A stretch of 64,000 nucleotides of DNA, taken from contig DYRQ01000002.1 of assembly GCA_020718645.1 (NCBI GenBank), positions 4,781 to 68,780 on the forward strand, read 5' to 3'. Within the stretch, counting starts at the first letter, position 1, and each line of letters begins with the position of its first letter. Of this stretch, positions 4,426 through 64,000 are shown piece after piece. Position numbers and translations under genes: made by a program. The DNA comes from Verrucomicrobium spinosum. GTDB lineage: Bacteria; Verrucomicrobiota; Verrucomicrobiia; JADLBR01; JAIBCM01. The notes under the pieces are model-generated. The model did no database searches. It was not told the DNA's origin and saw only the letters and a program-made list of their open reading frames with translations.

Positions 4426-5475
4426 CTACTGAGCCAATTGCAGACACAGGATGGCTGCCAGTGAACTGATGCTGATGAACAGCCAGAGCCAGAGCCCAGT
4501 AGCCACGGTCTTCCACCCGACTTGTTTTACAGCGTGCAGAGACACGCTCGAGCCGACGAGCAAGAGCACAACCACCATGCCGCGTCTGGCGCATTCTGTG
4601 AGAATGGGTGATACCGCAGACAGCGAGGGAAAACAGCTTCGCACTAGGGAAGCGCCGAGGAACAGCGCGATGAACCAAGGCACTTGGGGAGCAGGAGCGG
4701 CACTGGGGGAGGCCGTGGGAGAGCAGAGGGAATGCTCTCGTGTTTTTTGCAAATAGGCGAAGGACAGGCTCACAGGCACAATCCAGAGAGTCCTCGAGAG
4801 TTTCACCGCAGTGGCAGTATCGAGCGCGTCTTTTCCAAAACTCAGACTAGCCCCGACCACAGAGGATATATCGTGAATGGCTATGCCCGACCACAGGCCA
4901 AACTGGGCTTGGCTCAAATCGAGGGCGTGACCAATCGCAGGGAAAATAAACAGCGCAGCGGCATTGAGAAGAAATATGGTGGCGAGTGAAACGGCCACCT
5001 CTGCCTCGCTCGCCAGAATCACTGCGCTCACTGCCGCAATAGCTGACCCGCCACAGACTGCGGTTCCAGAAGCGATCAGCACACTGGTTTTCCATCCCAG
5101 TTTCATTTTGTCGCCGAGCCATAGACCCAATACGACCGTCATGCCGATCGTGGCCGCAGCAAAGAGAAACCCATCCCAACCCAACCTCAACACCGTTGGG
5201 AGATCCATGCCAAATCCCAACCCGATAACGCAGGCTTGCAACAGCCATTGGCCGAGAGGATAGCGGGAGTGGCCAGGAGGGCGGCCAACCGCGAGCCGCA
5301 ACAGGACTCCTCCCAGCAACGCAACAGGTGGAGAGGCGACATACAGCAAGACGGCACCTGTGATCAGCCAGATAGCAGCCGCACGGATTCCGCGGAAACG
5401 GGCGGCGTGTATCAAACTACTTTCACTGACTGGAGGAGCTGTTGGCAACGGGGTCATCTCCCGGGACACTGCCAC
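4426..5475 (-). CDS. YeiH / putative sulfate exporter (PSE, UPF0324) family membrane protein
   Basis: 349 aa, polytopic. It has a GTAVCGGSAIAA motif typical of YeiH. A divergently transcribed LysR regulator follows the classic yeiE/yeiH arrangement. Confidence 0.6.
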   Translation of the reverse strand: MAVSREMTPLPTAPPVSESSLIHAARFRGIRAAAIWLITGAVLLYVASPPVALLGGVLLRLAVGRPPGHSRYPLGQWLLQACVIGLGFGMDLPTVLRLGWDGFLFAAATIGMTVVLGLWLGDKMKLGWKTSVLIASGTAVCGGSAIAAVSAVILASEAEVAVSLATIFLLNAAALFIFPAIGHALDLSQAQFGLWSGIAIHDISSVVGASLSFGKDALDTATAVKLSRTLWIVPVSLSFAYLQKTREHSLCSPTASPSAAPAPQVPWFIALFLGASLVRSCFPSLSAVSPILTECARRGMVVVLLLVGSSVSLHAVKQVGWKTVATGLWLWLFISISSLAAILCLQLAQ

Positions 5476-26395: not shown

Positions 26396-28630
26396 ATGAA
26401 ACATCTCCAGAAAATCGTAGCGATTATTTCTGTGGTTGTGTTTCAAATCATGGATTCTACAGTGCTGGCAATGGATGTAGATGTAGATGGCATGAGCGAA
26501 GTTTGGCAGAGACTACATACCATTGCTTCGGGCGATCAAAGCTCAGATCTCGACGGGGATGGTCAGACTAACGGAATAGAGGCTGCTGCCGGCACAAACC
26601 CAAGAAACCCGAACGATGTCTTCCGTGTGGAAAGTTTGGATTTTGCAGAGGACTTGTCGGAGGTTACCCTCGTATGGAGAAGTTTTCCGGCTCTCTTTTA
26701 CTCCGTCCAAATGTCTGAAAACCTTCAGGATTGGTCTTTGGTAGGGAGTGTTCTCGGACATTCTGGAGCCAGTCAAACTAGCTTCTCTCTGACTTTGTCG
26801 TCACCGTCTTTACCCAAAGCATTTTTTCGTGTTCTGGCAGATGCAAACTCTAGCCCTGATACGGACGGAGACGGGCTTCAAGATTGGGAAGAGCATCTTC
26901 TACAAACGAGCATCTACATCACAGACACAGACGGCGATGGAATACCTGATGGCGCAGAATTTTCCTATGGACTCAATCCCCTATTAGCAGAGGACGCAGC
27001 GCTGGATGCGGATAGCGACGGACAGTCGAACGGACAAGAATACCAGAACGGAACCAACCCTCAATCCTCCTTGTCCAAAATGCCATCTCCTGCAGTGCGA
27101 TATGCCGTGATAGATTGCGGAGAGGGAGTGGCCATTGATCTCAACGATTCTGGACATGTGTTAGTGTGGAGTGGCTCACCGCGTCAATACCTCTTTGCAG
27201 AGGGAGATCGGGTTGGGTTGAGTAACGAATATCCCGCCTGTGTAGGAAACGATGGCACCGTGGCTGGCCCTAGTCAATTCGACGGCAACGGAGGGGGCAG
27301 AAAAGGTTTTCTGGAAAATTCTGGTTCTTCATTTTACGGTTTCTACAATGATTGGATAAAAGATGAACCTGGTCCGTGTTGGATCAATGACATCAGTTCG
27401 CTAGGCATACAAGTGGGCTCAATAATGGATGATGGTTCGCACCCTTATCCCTGTTATTACTTGCAAGGCGGGCAGGCCATATTGCTCAATACACCTACAG
27501 TGCAAAGCGGGAATCAGTCTTTCAGAGGGGGAGGCTATGCTTCCGCCATACACGAGGGCGGCCCGAATGGGCAGATTGTGGTGGGCATGCTGTTTGATTT
27601 TAGTATAGGAGACTTCGTGCCTGCAATGTGGTTGAATGGGAGTTACACGCTGATGCAAAATAGTTATGAGTCAGCGTATTTATCTGGAGTCAATATGTTC
27701 AAACAAGCAGTGGGTAGCGGAGGGTCACAGGCACTGCTCTGGGACAACGGACAAAAGCCCCTAGGGCATGGCAAAGCATGGGGAATCAATAGTCGTCAAA
27801 AGGATGGGCAATCCCGTCCGTTAATAGTAGGGGGAGATGGTGGCCATCATGAAAAAGATGGTCTTGGCAGCGATGACAAGGGGGTGTTCTGGGAGCAGCC
27901 GGTTCTCGAAGATGGCTCGCTGGATAGTCACTTTGAAGCGTATTATTTCGACGATGTCATAGTGGATAAAAGAACTTGGAATATCAACACGGCTGTAGCC
28001 GTCAACGAAGCATGCCAAGTTGCAGCCTCTGCCACAAACTTACAAACTGGTAAAACACATGCCGTCCTCCTCCTGCCGATCGAGGTAACAGACTTCAAGG
28101 CCGAGGATTATGGGACGGGAATTGAAACATCAGGGGTCTATCGCAAGGTTAACCTACAACCCGGAGATGTAGTTGTTTGGGGGAGATCGCTCGTTTCGGC
28201 AATCGTTAAAGTTCCCAATGGTTTTTCGAATACAATCATAGAACCTAGAATTGTCCAAGATGTTACACCGAATAGAACGCGCAATTTCACAACTCCTACT
28301 TCCCAAGGCCATACTAAAGAAATCATGCAATACCAAAACCAAAAGGTTTTGGATAATGTGCTTGATGAAAGTTGGGTAGAGCTGATTACAATTAGGCGAC
28401 TAGCACAGGATGTATTAATCGAGTCAAGGGATCAGCCTGAGCAGGGTGGAGGACCAGAGCACAGTGGAATAATTATAGCTGATAAGTTTGACGCTTATCT
28501 CCAATGCAATGTTTTTGGTCAAGGGTGGAGCACCTATGGAAAAGTTGAGTGGAGATTTAACGCTAATCTAAGCCGAAGCGGAAGCTCTTGGACTGGCAGT
28601 GCTGCGATTCGGGTGGAAGCGGGCGTTTAA
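26396..28630 (+). CDS. Large secreted protein with thrombospondin-type-3-like Ca-binding repeats (AT-rich island gene)
   Basis: It has a signal peptide (MKHLQKIVAIISVVVFQIMDSTVLA). Repeated D-x-D-x-D-G motifs are present (DLDGDGQTNG, DTDGDGLQDWEE, DTDGDGIPDGAE, DADSDGQSNGQEYQNGTNP). A long Gly/Trp/Asn-rich C-terminal region has no recognisable family. GC content is clearly lower than in the flanks. Confidence 0.6.
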   Translation: MKHLQKIVAIISVVVFQIMDSTVLAMDVDVDGMSEVWQRLHTIASGDQSSDLDGDGQTNGIEAAAGTNPRNPNDVFRVESLDFAEDLSEVTLVWRSFPALFYSVQMSENLQDWSLVGSVLGHSGASQTSFSLTLSSPSLPKAFFRVLADANSSPDTDGDGLQDWEEHLLQTSIYITDTDGDGIPDGAEFSYGLNPLLAEDAALDADSDGQSNGQEYQNGTNPQSSLSKMPSPAVRYAVIDCGEGVAIDLNDSGHVLVWSGSPRQYLFAEGDRVGLSNEYPACVGNDGTVAGPSQFDGNGGGRKGFLENSGSSFYGFYNDWIKDEPGPCWINDISSLGIQVGSIMDDGSHPYPCYYLQGGQAILLNTPTVQSGNQSFRGGGYASAIHEGGPNGQIVVGMLFDFSIGDFVPAMWLNGSYTLMQNSYESAYLSGVNMFKQAVGSGGSQALLWDNGQKPLGHGKAWGINSRQKDGQSRPLIVGGDGGHHEKDGLGSDDKGVFWEQPVLEDGSLDSHFEAYYFDDVIVDKRTWNINTAVAVNEACQVAASATNLQTGKTHAVLLLPIEVTDFKAEDYGTGIETSGVYRKVNLQPGDVVVWGRSLVSAIVKVPNGFSNTIIEPRIVQDVTPNRTRNFTTPTSQGHTKEIMQYQNQKVLDNVLDESWVELITIRRLAQDVLIESRDQPEQGGGPEHSGIIIADKFDAYLQCNVFGQGWSTYGKVEWRFNANLSRSGSSWTGSAAIRVEAGV

Positions 28631-28685
28631 CCGCTGAGGAGCCAGTGATGCAGCCAAACATTCATCCCGTTCAGTTTGTCCCTCA

Positions 28686-29381
28686 ATGAAATCGCGGCAT
28701 ATAATATTTGTCCTATTCATTGCGACGCTCATGCAGAGAAGCATGGCCGCCCAAAATGCTAGTGACATTGGTTTCAATATGAAACCAACCCCGTTTGATG
28801 CCTATGCGGCGGCAACCCAAGATACTTTACCTCGGTTGGAGCCATATTTTCGTGCCTATAAAGAAGCTGAAAAACAGGGCGACAAAGTTCAGAAGGAAGC
28901 CATGCTTCACCAGATCGTTCTTCGCAATACGCTAGAAAACTGGAGATGGCAATTTTACCAATACGGTATACAGAACGAACAGAAACTTTCTGATCGCGAG
29001 CGGGCGGTATGGAAAATGATCAACACGATGTTTGCAGGACGGACTGCACCTCCGAACCCTGAAAACATGCTCCGAATTCCTCCCGAACAAATACGAGAAT
29101 CTATAATTCGAGAAAAAGAAGAGTTCAATAAGACGTTGACGGCTTTTGATAGCGGTAATTTCGGGAACAAGCCACTGCCTACGACTATAACACCGACCGC
29201 AGGTGTGCAAACAACACCCGCTCCATCAGTGGCGACGCCGGTTCAACAGGCCCAAACGGCCATGTCGCCAACGGTGGCGCAAACCCAATCCACGCTGGGC
29301 TTCCCCTTCGTGCCGGTGACAATACTCGCAGCGGTGATCGTGGGAATCGTCCTTTACCTCCTTCGCCGTAAATCGAAGTGA
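28686..29381 (+). CDS. Hypothetical secreted protein with C-terminal TM anchor and basic tail (island gene)
   Basis: It has a signal peptide (MKSRHIIFVLFIATLMQRSMA) and a Thr/Pro/Gln-rich linker. The C-terminus is GFPFVPVTILAAVIVGIVLYLLRRKSK, a hydrophobic helix plus RRK reminiscent of a sorting-signal architecture, but it lacks a PEP motif. Confidence 0.5.
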   Translation: MKSRHIIFVLFIATLMQRSMAAQNASDIGFNMKPTPFDAYAAATQDTLPRLEPYFRAYKEAEKQGDKVQKEAMLHQIVLRNTLENWRWQFYQYGIQNEQKLSDRERAVWKMINTMFAGRTAPPNPENMLRIPPEQIRESIIREKEEFNKTLTAFDSGNFGNKPLPTTITPTAGVQTTPAPSVATPVQQAQTAMSPTVAQTQSTLGFPFVPVTILAAVIVGIVLYLLRRKSK

Positions 29382-61557: not shown

Positions 61558-63084
61558 ATGGTTTCAAAAATCACTAGCGCAACCACTAGCGGGGTAGATG
61601 CCTTGCCGGTGGAAGTCGAAGTCCACACAGGCAGGGGCAACTTCGTCGTCGTCGTGGTCGGTCTCCCGGATGCTGCTGTCAAGGAATCGCGCGACCGTGT
61701 GAAGACTGCGATGGAAAACTCCGGTTTCCGCCACCCGCAAGGGCGCACCACCATTAACCTCGCTCCTGCTGATTTGAAAAAAGAGGGTCCCGCCTTCGAC
61801 CTGCCCATTGCCCTCGGTATCCTCGCCTCCGACGATCAGATCACAGGTTCCCGGTTGTCGGGTTATCTCTGCACCGGCGAACTAGCTCTCGGCGGCGAAG
61901 TCCGTTGCGTGCGCGGGGTATTGTCCATGGCGCTGGAGGCTAAAAAAATGGGGCTGGGCATTATCGTGCCCCGTGACAACGCCCGCGAAGCTGCTGCCGT
62001 CGAGGGTCTCGAAGTGATTCCAGTCGGCTCCTTGCGCGAATGTGTGGAGTGGCTGGAAGCTCGCCGTGAGATTGCACCCTATCATCTCGACACCACTTCT
62101 CTCTTCAATCAAGCCACCACCGATGACAGCGACTTCGCCGAAGTGCGCGGGCAGGAGAGCGTCAAAAAAGCTTTCGAAATCGCGGCTGCCGGTGGCCACA
62201 ATCTCCTGCTAGTCGGCCCTCCCGGCTCGGGCAAATCCATGCTCAGCAAAAGACTCCCTGGCATCCTCCCGGCTCTCGCACTGGACGAGGCTTTGGAGAC
62301 GACGAAAATTCACAGCGTGGCGGGGCTGCTGACCCCGGGACAATCCTTGGTCACACGCCGCCCGTTCCGCAGTGTTCATCACACGGTCTCGGATGTGGGA
62401 TTAGCCGGTGGCGGCAGCAACCCTTCCCCCGGAGAAATCAGCCTCGCCCACAACGGCGTTCTTTTTCTCGACGAGCTACCTGAGTTCAAGCGTTCGGCTC
62501 TCGAGGTCATGCGACAGCCCTTGGAGGACGGTCATGTCACCATCTCCCGTGCCTCGGGCACGATGCGTTACCCCGCCCGGTTCATGTTGGTTGCCGCCAT
62601 GAATCCCACGCCCGACGGTAAGTCCATCCGCGAATCAAAATCCACGCCGAACGAAATCCGCCGCTACTTAGCCAAACTCTCCGCCCCTCTGCTCGACCGT
62701 ATTGATATCCATGTCTCTGTCGAGGCCGTGAAAGTCCACGAATTGACTGGCGCCGAAACCGGCGAAAGCTCCGCCACGGTGCGGGCCAGAGTCGAAGCTG
62801 CCCGCGCCCTGCAAACAGCCCGCTTCCGAGCAGCCAAGAAAAAAACCTCCTGCAACGCGCACATGAGCGGACGGGAAATCCGCCAGTTTTGCGCCTTGGA
62901 TGAAGCAGGGACCTCCATTTTCAAACATGCCCTCCACGACACGGGTATCTCCGCCCGCGCCCATGACAAAATCCTGAAAGTCGCTCGCACGATAGCCGAC
63001 CTCGACGGCGCTCCTACCATCAGCGAAAACCATCTTCTCTTGGCCATCAGCTTCCGCGAACTAGACCGTCAGCTCTGGGGCTGA
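61558..63084 (+). CDS. comM: YifB/ComM family Mg-chelatase-like AAA+ ATPase
   Basis: An N-terminal Lon-like domain is followed by an AAA+ core (GPPGSGKSM) and a C-terminal ChlI domain. Confidence 0.9.
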   Translation: MVSKITSATTSGVDALPVEVEVHTGRGNFVVVVVGLPDAAVKESRDRVKTAMENSGFRHPQGRTTINLAPADLKKEGPAFDLPIALGILASDDQITGSRLSGYLCTGELALGGEVRCVRGVLSMALEAKKMGLGIIVPRDNAREAAAVEGLEVIPVGSLRECVEWLEARREIAPYHLDTTSLFNQATTDDSDFAEVRGQESVKKAFEIAAAGGHNLLLVGPPGSGKSMLSKRLPGILPALALDEALETTKIHSVAGLLTPGQSLVTRRPFRSVHHTVSDVGLAGGGSNPSPGEISLAHNGVLFLDELPEFKRSALEVMRQPLEDGHVTISRASGTMRYPARFMLVAAMNPTPDGKSIRESKSTPNEIRRYLAKLSAPLLDRIDIHVSVEAVKVHELTGAETGESSATVRARVEAARALQTARFRAAKKKTSCNAHMSGREIRQFCALDEAGTSIFKHALHDTGISARAHDKILKVARTIADLDGAPTISENHLLLAISFRELDRQLWG

Positions 63085-63123
63085 ATTAACCACTTGACAT
63101 CTACTGAAACCAAAACACACACA

Positions 63124-64000
63124 TTATTGTATTATGCATATTATACGAAAATTTTTTGCCCTACATTTTTTTACCATTATGGTGGCTCAGTTCTCTCATG
63201 AATTAGCAAGAGCAGAAAACAATTCGTCTCATATTGAAACTAATGCACAAGCATCCTCAAATATCACAGCTACAGAATATACAACTTCCAAATCTACATT
63301 AAAACCATCTCTTTTTGTGGACAGCGAAATTAGTTTGGTAACTATAACAGGAAAGTCGTATGACAAAGCTGTAATTAAGGAAATTGGAATAGATTATATA
63401 AAACTTATGCACTCTTCAGGTATTGCGAAAATACCCAAAAGAGACATACCTGATGACATTATAAATATGTTAGGTCCATGCACAACAAAGGCTGTTGTGC
63501 AAAATACTCAAACTATCGCAGTTAGCGCGGATCAAAGTGAACTTATCAAACAACAGGCGACTAACTTAAATATAACTCAACCTACACAACAACAGGAGCA
63601 AGTTTTAATAACTTCAAGTGGTTATAAATTCTTTTTAAATGATTTAATCAGTAGAAGTGGACAGATGACATCACATGCTAATGCAGCAAAAGGATACATG
63701 TATGCTACAGGTCCTTTAAAGGGAAAGACACAAGGAGAAGGGGAGGTGTATGCAAGGGGGTTGTGGGATAAAATGAACTACAATGAACAACTAGAGTGGC
63801 AAACCAAGGCTAACTTTTACAGCAAGGGCAGAAGTCAAAAAGTAAGCGCAGAAATTACTGCTCCTACTGCGGCTGGTTTTAACTTTTATTATAAAGACTT
63901 AGTTGATCGAAGTGGCCAGATGGCAGGGCATGAAGGAAATGCCAAAGGTGCAGTATATTCTACCGGCCCTTTGAAAGGAAAGACTCGCGGAGGAGCTCAG
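63124..64000 (+). CDS. Partial CDS running off the window end. AT-rich gene for a secreted protein with tandem repeat modules of about 75 aa, unknown family.
   Basis: It is not in the ORF track because it has no in-window stop. The manual translation is MHIIRKFFALHFFTIMVAQFSHELARA... and it contains two near-identical modules: FLNDLISRSGQMTSHANAAKGYMYATGPLKGKTQGEG and YKDLVDRSGQMAGHEGNAKGAVYSTGPLKGKTRGGAQ. Local GC content is far below the window average. Confidence 0.5.

Follow-up and report, generated by a model that had tools for sequence, protein, structure and literature searches.

The window analysed here is a stretch of 64,000 nt (positions 4,781 to 68,780 of contig DYRQ01000002.1 in assembly GCA_020718645.1, labelled Verrucomicrobium spinosum) that ends in a strongly AT-rich tract lying directly 3' of comM and holding one gene, whose product of 316 amino acids (aa) is referred to as P0001. 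On an NCBI contig of the same locus that continues beyond the window (L001), this deviant tract is a single-gene insert of ~1.1 kb and not the edge of an island, because the transketolase gene tkt, at host G+C content (GC), follows 106 nt after the gene, and because no integrase (among the genes called up to 5 kb downstream), no tRNA or tmRNA gene (in the 64-kb window) and no convincing attachment (att) repeat were detected. Considering that GC at third codon positions (GC3) is 0.29 in this gene beside 0.67-0.70 in the flanking genes, that its homologues are rare and that these homologues have mobile-element neighbours, a foreign origin of the gene is likely. We therefore read the tract as a horizontally acquired single-gene cassette for an exported protein with a doubled high mobility group (HMG)-box-like domain, which would belong to a mobile-element-linked family with a role in conflicts involving phages, and we give this reading as a whole a probability of about 0.5. 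The part that concerns the identity and origin of the gene is fairly probable on its own, and the part that concerns a specific function is doubtful.

A single AT-rich gene between comM and tkt

comM/yifB, the left border of the tract, has a host-type composition (GC 0.597, GC3 0.674) and is intact, its 508 aa matching TIGR00368 over the full length. Directly 3' of its TGA stop, GC drops from 0.59-0.62 to 0.35-0.41, and the part of the tract within the window has a GC of 0.373 (z = -6.3, with reference to 900-bp windows over the remaining ~63 kb, whose mean GC is 0.569 +/- 0.031 and minimum 0.452). The whole tract is ~1,118 bp long and carries only the gene of P0001, with a GC of 0.386 and a GC3 of 0.293 (remaining contig, GC 0.557). 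The stop codon of this gene lies at window-equivalent positions 64082-64084, 84 nt past the end of the window, and is overlapped by a terminator-like hairpin; a promoter scan revealed no sigma-70-like site 5' of the open reading frame (ORF). tkt is again of host type (GC 0.576, GC3 0.699). As called, tkt starts at L001 11057, partly within the AT-rich tract, and an in-frame ATG at L001 11114 (MNQPIETLAVNTIK...) would give a more typical transketolase N-terminus, in which case the gap may be ~160 nt and not 106.

The frame of P0001 is open over 328 codons, for which the chance is 3.7e-11 at a random stop rate of 7.1% of codons, and the other five frames of the tract contain 19-33 stops each. 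GC at codon positions 1/2/3 of the ORF is 0.46/0.40/0.29, a gradient as expected for coding DNA of an AT-rich source. The sole match to the window fragment among 5.8 billion clustered proteins is P0001 itself (316 aa, 100% identical), and its sequence is identical on L001 (79 kb, from the NCBI metagenome-assembled genome (MAG) GCA_974337675.1), on a contig of JGI metagenome 3300000230 (L002) and on a Logan contig of SRR1559353 (L003). L002 and L001 are 99.86% identical across 3,592 nt, and between the window and L001 there are 6 differences in 10,100 positions. The NCBI MAG contig and the separate JGI contig each run across both ends of the tract, and the window itself spans the comM junction. 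Because these independent assemblies agree, the junctions are real and not the product of a chimeric join.

Two Logan contigs break at the borders of the tract: the sequence of L172, from SRR404114, runs precisely to the comM stop codon (window 63084), and L003 corresponds to L001 9922-11099 (window-equivalent 63055-64232), that is, to the AT-rich tract with exactly 30 nt on each side. If a k=31 de Bruijn graph is assumed for both assemblies, breaks with 30-nt overlaps at both borders mean that the graph branches at L001 9952 and 11069, which are the compositional borders. This suggests that the comM-tkt site is polymorphic, with a second haplotype that is empty or has another cassette; a search for the sequence of an alternative haplotype at this site found none. 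The nearest ComM among the 5.8 billion proteins is 66% identical. Of the top 80 genome loci that ComM retrieved, none has tkt or a family gene near comM and none shares the gene order, and scans of genome and metagenome contigs with ComM gave at best 62-66% identity among the matches listed and no shared synteny. As the ComM proteins most similar to that of the window belong to MAGs of Verrucomicrobiia and Limisphaerales, the host is placed as a deep-branching (freshwater) member of Verrucomicrobiota, and ComM identities of at most 66% together with the unshared gene order place the window in a very sparsely sampled lineage of this phylum. Elsewhere in the window, the stretch of lowest GC (0.45-0.47, positions 26396-29381) encodes two proteins of 744 and 231 aa whose N-termini resemble signal peptides; the former has Asp-rich motifs of the 'DxDGDG' type and the latter a C-terminal hydrophobic anchor.

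Past tkt, L001 13368-15802 carries a GDSL-type lipase gene (GC 0.44, GC3 0.52) and then a DDE_Tnp_1 transposase gene of insertion sequence (IS) type with host-like GC, and the contig ends ~3 kb beyond the latter. This transposase gene, 3.7 kb downstream, is the sole recombinase-like gene among the genes called to 5 kb downstream; the others called around the locus, the lipase gene apart, belong to core metabolism, so that core and accessory genes are somewhat intermixed in this neighbourhood, in the manner of a small mosaic. The only direct repeat bracketing the insert is 13 nt long with 12/13 identity (CATCTTCTCTTGG / CATTTTCTCTTGG). It was rejected as an att site, since a scan of 1.7 kb should turn up ~1 match of this kind by chance and its positions are also off the tract borders defined by the assembly graph.

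An earlier interpretation made from the DNA letters of the window (the sequence-only reading) had taken the tract for the edge of an island, a prophage or an integrative element, which would make it the left end of a large insertion beside comM; this is now very unlikely. The GC switch is abrupt and falls exactly at the comM stop, and the lipase and IS-type transposase genes 2.4-4.9 kb downstream, with the contig end soon after, would suit such an element; however, the deviant block amounts to one gene, and host composition is regained 106 nt behind it. That reading had named, as findings that would speak against an island, a downstream return to host composition with core genes and a repeat protein conserved at this locus across the lineage, and the former half is what L001 contains (GC 0.57 with transketolase). 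The integrase and att-site search that it proposed yielded no integrase among the called genes and the chance-level 13-nt repeat, and no tRNA gene is present in the window. Even less room is left for an artefact, whether two sequences wrongly joined in assembly or a non-coding AT-rich stretch mistaken for an ORF, which is barely conceivable: a MAG contig may be chimeric where its composition switches, and the ORF was missing from the initial ORF list, probably since it runs off the window, but the spanned and near-identical junctions, the low chance of such an open frame (~4e-11), the coding-type codon-position gradient and significant remote homologues all argue for a real gene. The sequence-only reading was thus partly right in its interpretation, in that the gene appears foreign and related to mobile elements, but wrong on the island edge. 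Its naming of the upstream gene as comM/yifB agrees with the TIGR00368 match and three Pfam domains, the abrupt AT-rich switch and the foreign composition that it described are borne out by the values above, and the ORF that it saw running off the window is a true frame; its start codon at 63124, however, lies in a frame full of stops and was discarded in favour of the ATG at 63134.

P0001 and its domain family

P0001 is probably exported through Sec. Its N-terminus has the charged n-region, the hydrophobic h-region and the small residues at -3/-1 of a signal peptide, and this segment, which ends in ARA/E, is the sole hydrophobic one in the protein (Kyte-Doolittle (KD) hydropathy, KD(12) 2.11). 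The call, on which the sequence-only reading agrees, rests on inspection and hydropathy. Behind the signal peptide, linkers rich in Ser/Thr/Asn and Gln/Thr flank a 52-aa beta-rich module, which is followed by two copies of a 70-aa domain. The beta-rich module has the consensus LxTxDGKxYxNAxxxxVEPDGIxIxHxxGxAKIxFxxLPxE (alignment A5); its strands are predicted at low confidence only, and it has no PDB match and no accepted Pfam match. The two copies of the 70-aa domain are 51% identical over a 69-aa local alignment (score 207, compared with 27 +/- 5 when shuffled), and the repeat period is 85 aa, the sum of the domain and a 15-aa linker. The tandem repeats reported earlier are therefore real, but their period is not ~75 aa and there are exactly two of them. 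At the nucleotide level the copies are 57.5% identical and use the same codon at 16 of 35 conserved residues; therefore, the duplication is old. The full-length protein, modelled by AlphaFold2 from its single sequence, gave a result of too low quality for use (predicted local distance difference test (pLDDT) 46.6), and sub-threshold library hits of P0001 to DUF900 and CoV_S1_C were rejected as noise.

An exhaustive phmmer search of 1.84 billion cluster representatives identified 18 remote homologues of P0001 (E 6e-9 to 5e-4), one of which carries the annotation hypothetical protein in a MAG of Verrucomicrobiales. The 70-aa domain, which is C-terminal, occurs as one copy in 12 homologues and as two copies in P0001 only. 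According to a local hidden Markov model (HMM), the beta module is present in 15 of the 19 proteins (P0001 and 14 homologues), with up to 7 copies per protein, and the phmmer matches of P0008, P0012 and P0013 cover both modules in the same order. Most full-length homologues have signal peptides clearer than that of P0001 (KD 2.1-3.2), and in P0010 a VAGC motif resembles a lipobox. For neither module is the Pfam gathering threshold reached in any of the 19 proteins, and the only curated domain among them is a thioredoxin-like domain in P0014; NCBIfam, searched with the window fragment, and PHROGs, searched with P0001 and a few neighbours, provided no usable match. On these searches the 70-aa domain family is previously undescribed and absent from Pfam, NCBIfam and PHROGs, in line with the sequence-only reading, which had not recognised a family. 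In the region past the beta module, P0003, P0007, P0012 and P0018 have repeated matches to Chlamy_scaf, the scaffold of Chlamydia phage Chp2 (best E 6.6e-5, below the gathering score), over a stretch 'AKIPF..LP....FGYDP.KA..Y..eQ' that may be coiled-coil-like noise. Sub-threshold Chlamy_scaf matches of three beta-module members and several full-length homologues, and a weak WDGH match in one homologue, were not accepted.

The 70-aa domain has the consensus PTxxGFxxFxxELxxQSG(12-16)YxxGPLxGKTxGEAxxYAxxxWExMSxxxQMxYExKAxxYG. When a profile of it (alignment A1) was compared with all PDB sequences, HMG boxes made up 11 of the 12 best hits (PMS1, HMGB1 and NHP6A among them; best E 0.014), and with three phage paralogues added (alignment A6) they made up 17 of the 19 best, with a best E of only 0.0075. 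AlphaFold2 modelled copy 2 from a 14-sequence alignment with a pLDDT of 90.4 and a predicted template modelling (pTM) score of 0.75, and placed helices at residues 2-16, 41-54 and 57-70, so the predicted structure has the three helices and the size (~70-80 aa) of the HMG-box fold. Foldseek ranked HMG boxes as the best hits of this model at a template modelling (TM) score of 0.52-0.57, but with E 2.2 or worse, and in BFVD its top match comes from a giant virus and is likewise an HMG-box protein. In an hhalign comparison with seven HMG boxes, each confirmed as HMG_box by Pfam (E to 3e-29), the probability was 79% and E 1.5e-5, for an alignment of 31 columns confined to helices 2-3; the invariant Trp of the family is aligned with the HMG-box Trp, and the YE.KA motif also matches the HMG-box core. 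Since all methods agree and none is decisive singly, we call the domain HMG-box-like, a label based on sequence comparison and modelling under which homology is not statistically established. The literature searched contained no description of exported bacterial HMG-box-like proteins, and the only HMG-like precedent found there from the phage world was the N-terminal domain of T4 gp59.

Genomic contexts of homologues and origin of the gene

Six homologues lie on contigs long enough for their surroundings to be read; five of them adjoin phage or mobile-element genes, and the sixth adjoins an HTH_3 gene. Contigs L086, L090 and L175 have a common order of a terminase-like gene, an exported family gene, a paralogue lacking a signal peptide and a gene for a giant polyvalent protein. 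The terminase-like protein (596-600 aa) matches phrog_24361 (E 1e-8) and, by tblastn, 268 phage records, several of the best being annotated as terminase large subunit and some labelled otherwise. The signal-peptide-less paralogue (313-426 aa) has the 70-aa domain at its N-terminus (profile E 5e-14 to 1.5e-9) with very Arg-rich, basic loops (e.g., SGNRRSRGGSRRGGFRY); the rest of this protein is Ala/Pro/Thr-rich with recurring 'YAGP' motifs. The giant proteins have more than 3,800-4,900 aa, with MuF_C, ddrB-ParB and Zeta_toxin domains on L086, MuF_C and LPD on L090, and a faint Zeta_toxin match on L175. Polyvalent proteins have been described as weapons delivered by phages and by plasmids or conjugative elements (PMC5512222). 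A resolvase gene precedes the family gene on L173 and on L176/L177. On the unrelated contigs L088 and L177, the family gene has a short gene for an HTH_3 (Cro/CI-like) protein immediately 5' of it, on the other strand, which hints at a conserved pair of regulator and cargo. The homologues' genes have a GC of 0.50-0.54, and most of them are 3-9 points below their flanks. Thus, the family is sparse, otherwise has one domain copy, and is typically found on prophages and resolvase-bearing elements. The link to mobile DNA proposed in the sequence-only reading therefore holds for the homologues, most of which lie on phage or mobile-element DNA, but not for the tract as an edge of such an element.

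Table 1. Positions of the features described in the text. Coordinates are those of the window unless a contig or the protein is named.
Feature	Coordinates	Strand	Basis or remark
comM/yifB, Mg-chelatase-like AAA ATPase, 508 aa	61558..63084	+	TIGR00368 E 1.3e-179; Pfam ChlI, Mg_chelatase, Mg_chelatase_C
AT-rich tract	63085..64000, and on for ~202 nt past the window to L001 11069 (window-equivalent 64202)		GC, contig breaks
ORF for P0001 (316 aa)	63134..64000 (codons 1-289 in window)	+	First ATG after in-frame TGA at 63095-63097
Probable Sec signal peptide, aa 1-27	63134..63214	+	MHIIRK / FFALHFFTIMVAQF / SHELARA, then E; 14-residue hydrophobic core
Ser/Thr/Asn-rich linker	P0001 aa 28-67		
52-aa beta-rich module, aa 68-119	63335..63490	+	Local HMM, domain E 1e-20
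Gln/Thr-rich linker	P0001 aa 120-161		
70-aa HMG-box-like domain copy 1, aa 162-231	63617..63826	+	hmmsearch domain E 3e-29; alignments A1, A6
15-aa linker	P0001 aa 232-246		
70-aa HMG-box-like domain copy 2, aa 247-316	63872..64000 (aa 247-289 in window)	+	Domain E 1e-31
Imperfect 13-nt direct repeat	L001 9898-9910 and 11023-11035 (window 63031-63043 and window-equivalent 64156-64168)		
Signal-peptide-less paralogue genes	L086 7125-8258; L090 6845-7786; L175 7023-8303		Just 5' of the polyvalent gene
Small HTH_3 (Cro/CI-like) gene	L088 5700-5909; L177 5699-5863	Opposite to family gene	Directly upstream of the family gene

On the preferred reading, the gene would have been dropped at the comM-tkt site from a pool of phage or mobile-element genes and would now stand alone, like a stranded moron. 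P0001 would be located in the envelope, either in the periplasm or on the surface, where the beta module might act as an anchor or adaptor and the paired HMG-box-like domains might bind a polymer or a partner, such as incoming DNA or an ejected phage protein with the same domain. The outcome could be superinfection exclusion or another function in phage-host or phage-phage conflict. A conflict role is favoured because the same domain occurs in a signal-peptide-less phage protein encoded beside a MuF-type polyvalent protein, a type thought to be packaged in virions; superinfection exclusion in particular is a conjecture from gene context. Several observations weigh against this reading. No mobile-element gene accompanies the copy at comM-tkt, a tblastn search of 50,697 GenBank phages with P0001 gave no match, an IMG/VR search with three homologues (alignment A4) found no relative, and the GC of the homologues' genes is unlike the 0.39 of the P0001 gene. 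The homologues have stronger signal peptides than P0001, whose own is tied to the choice of the first ATG. With regard to the domain, the HMG-box statistics are sub-threshold (profile E against PDB 0.0075 at best, Foldseek E >= 2.2, hhalign limited to helices 2-3), Pfam HMG_box (PF00505/PF09011) gave no match even at E up to 1 for P0001 and up to 0.1 for the 18 homologues, and the 24-residue loop between helices 1 and 2, which holds the best-conserved family motif, SG...Y..GP..G(K/M)T, has no counterpart in HMG boxes. Moreover, the net charge of 14 exported-type domains is -4 to +4, whereas three true HMG boxes range from +3 to +9, and a domain that is not basic argues against generic DNA binding by the exported copies.

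Two other explanations have to be weighed at this point, one of which concerns the origin of the gene and the other its function. A native, lineage-specific and fast-evolving envelope gene, with a low GC caused by local mutation or selection and not by transfer, would be in keeping with the GC-poor genes of other exported proteins in the window (0.45-0.47 at 26.4-29.4 kb), with the 3-9 points by which most homologues' genes fall under their flanks and with modules shared by other proteins, at least one of them encoded in a Verrucomicrobiales MAG, and the available relatives are too distant to show absence of the gene at this site. We nevertheless regard it as improbable, considering that a GC3 of 0.29 beside 0.67-0.70 goes far past these milder dips (z = -6.3), that the borders are knife-sharp, at the comM stop and just 5' of tkt, with branches of the assembly graph at these very points, and that the family is otherwise tied to mobile elements. 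It is also possible, although on the whole not likely, that the HMG-box resemblance is convergent and that the domain is a generic three-helix protein- or glycan-binding module in an ordinary adhesin-like or envelope structural protein. This explanation, which concerns function only and is thus compatible with a foreign origin, draws on the sub-threshold value of every HMG-box statistic, on the charge and the extracytoplasmic location of the domain and on the position of its best-conserved motif in a long family-specific loop; however, four independent methods place HMG boxes first across the whole PDB, the aligned Trp and the YE.KA motif fit the HMG-box core, and the very basic loops of the signal-peptide-less phage paralogues are consistent with nucleic-acid binding.

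A bolder version of the preferred account would take the 70-aa repeat as a genuine prokaryotic and phage branch of the HMG box that resides on phages and mobile elements of Verrucomicrobia-type hosts. A signal-peptide-less form, perhaps associated with the virion, and an exported, periplasmic form would then coexist, and the latter could bind incoming DNA or an ejected protein that shares the domain, which would be a new mechanism of superinfection exclusion and a possible prokaryotic source of a chromatin domain. We consider all of this a long shot. HMG boxes are regarded as a hallmark of eukaryotic chromatin, and Verrucomicrobiota is a phylum long discussed for eukaryote-like traits. As genome structure, the locus is ordinary, with one foreign gene between two core genes. 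The interest lies in the protein, which represents an undescribed domain family with an HMG-box-like predicted fold in exported bacterial and phage proteins, and the occurrence of the domain in two settings (exported, and signal-peptide-less beside giant polyvalent proteins) points to phage-host or phage-phage conflict. If the homology is true, a prokaryotic branch would be added to the HMG-box superfamily.

Comparison with known systems

Eukaryotic HMG-box domains, above all those of tandem-box proteins (HMGB1, TFAM/Abf2p and UBF), are the nearest structural and sequence relatives of the 70-aa domain. Unlike them, it has P-T-x-x-G-F in place of the N-terminal basic PKRP strand and an extra conserved loop of 24 residues between helices 1 and 2, is not consistently basic and lacks a Pfam HMG_box match; besides, P0001 has a signal peptide, is probably extracytoplasmic and belongs to a bacterial or phage host. 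The HMG-like N-terminal domain of the T4 gp59 helicase loader is a far weaker match than the eukaryotic HMG boxes. The loader functions in replication within the cytoplasm and has another C-terminal domain, and no sequence similarity was detected.

With respect to the locus, foreign DNA adjoining comM recalls the comM-targeting islands of Acinetobacter (AbaR type). These islands interrupt comM and carry genes for transposition or integration and many cargo genes, whereas here comM is intact, the insert begins after its stop, and it consists of one gene and has no recombinase. The other known systems to which the cassette may be compared are phage morons and the exported exclusion or lysogenic-conversion proteins of phages, such as T4 Sp, T5 Llp and lambda Bor. 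Although the copy encoding P0001 lies outside any recognisable prophage and no sequence or fold relation to known exclusion proteins was found, it resembles them in being a small self-contained gene of deviant composition with a signal-peptide-bearing product and a terminator-like hairpin, and its homologues are moron-like in that their genes adjoin HTH_3 or resolvase genes or sit between phage modules.

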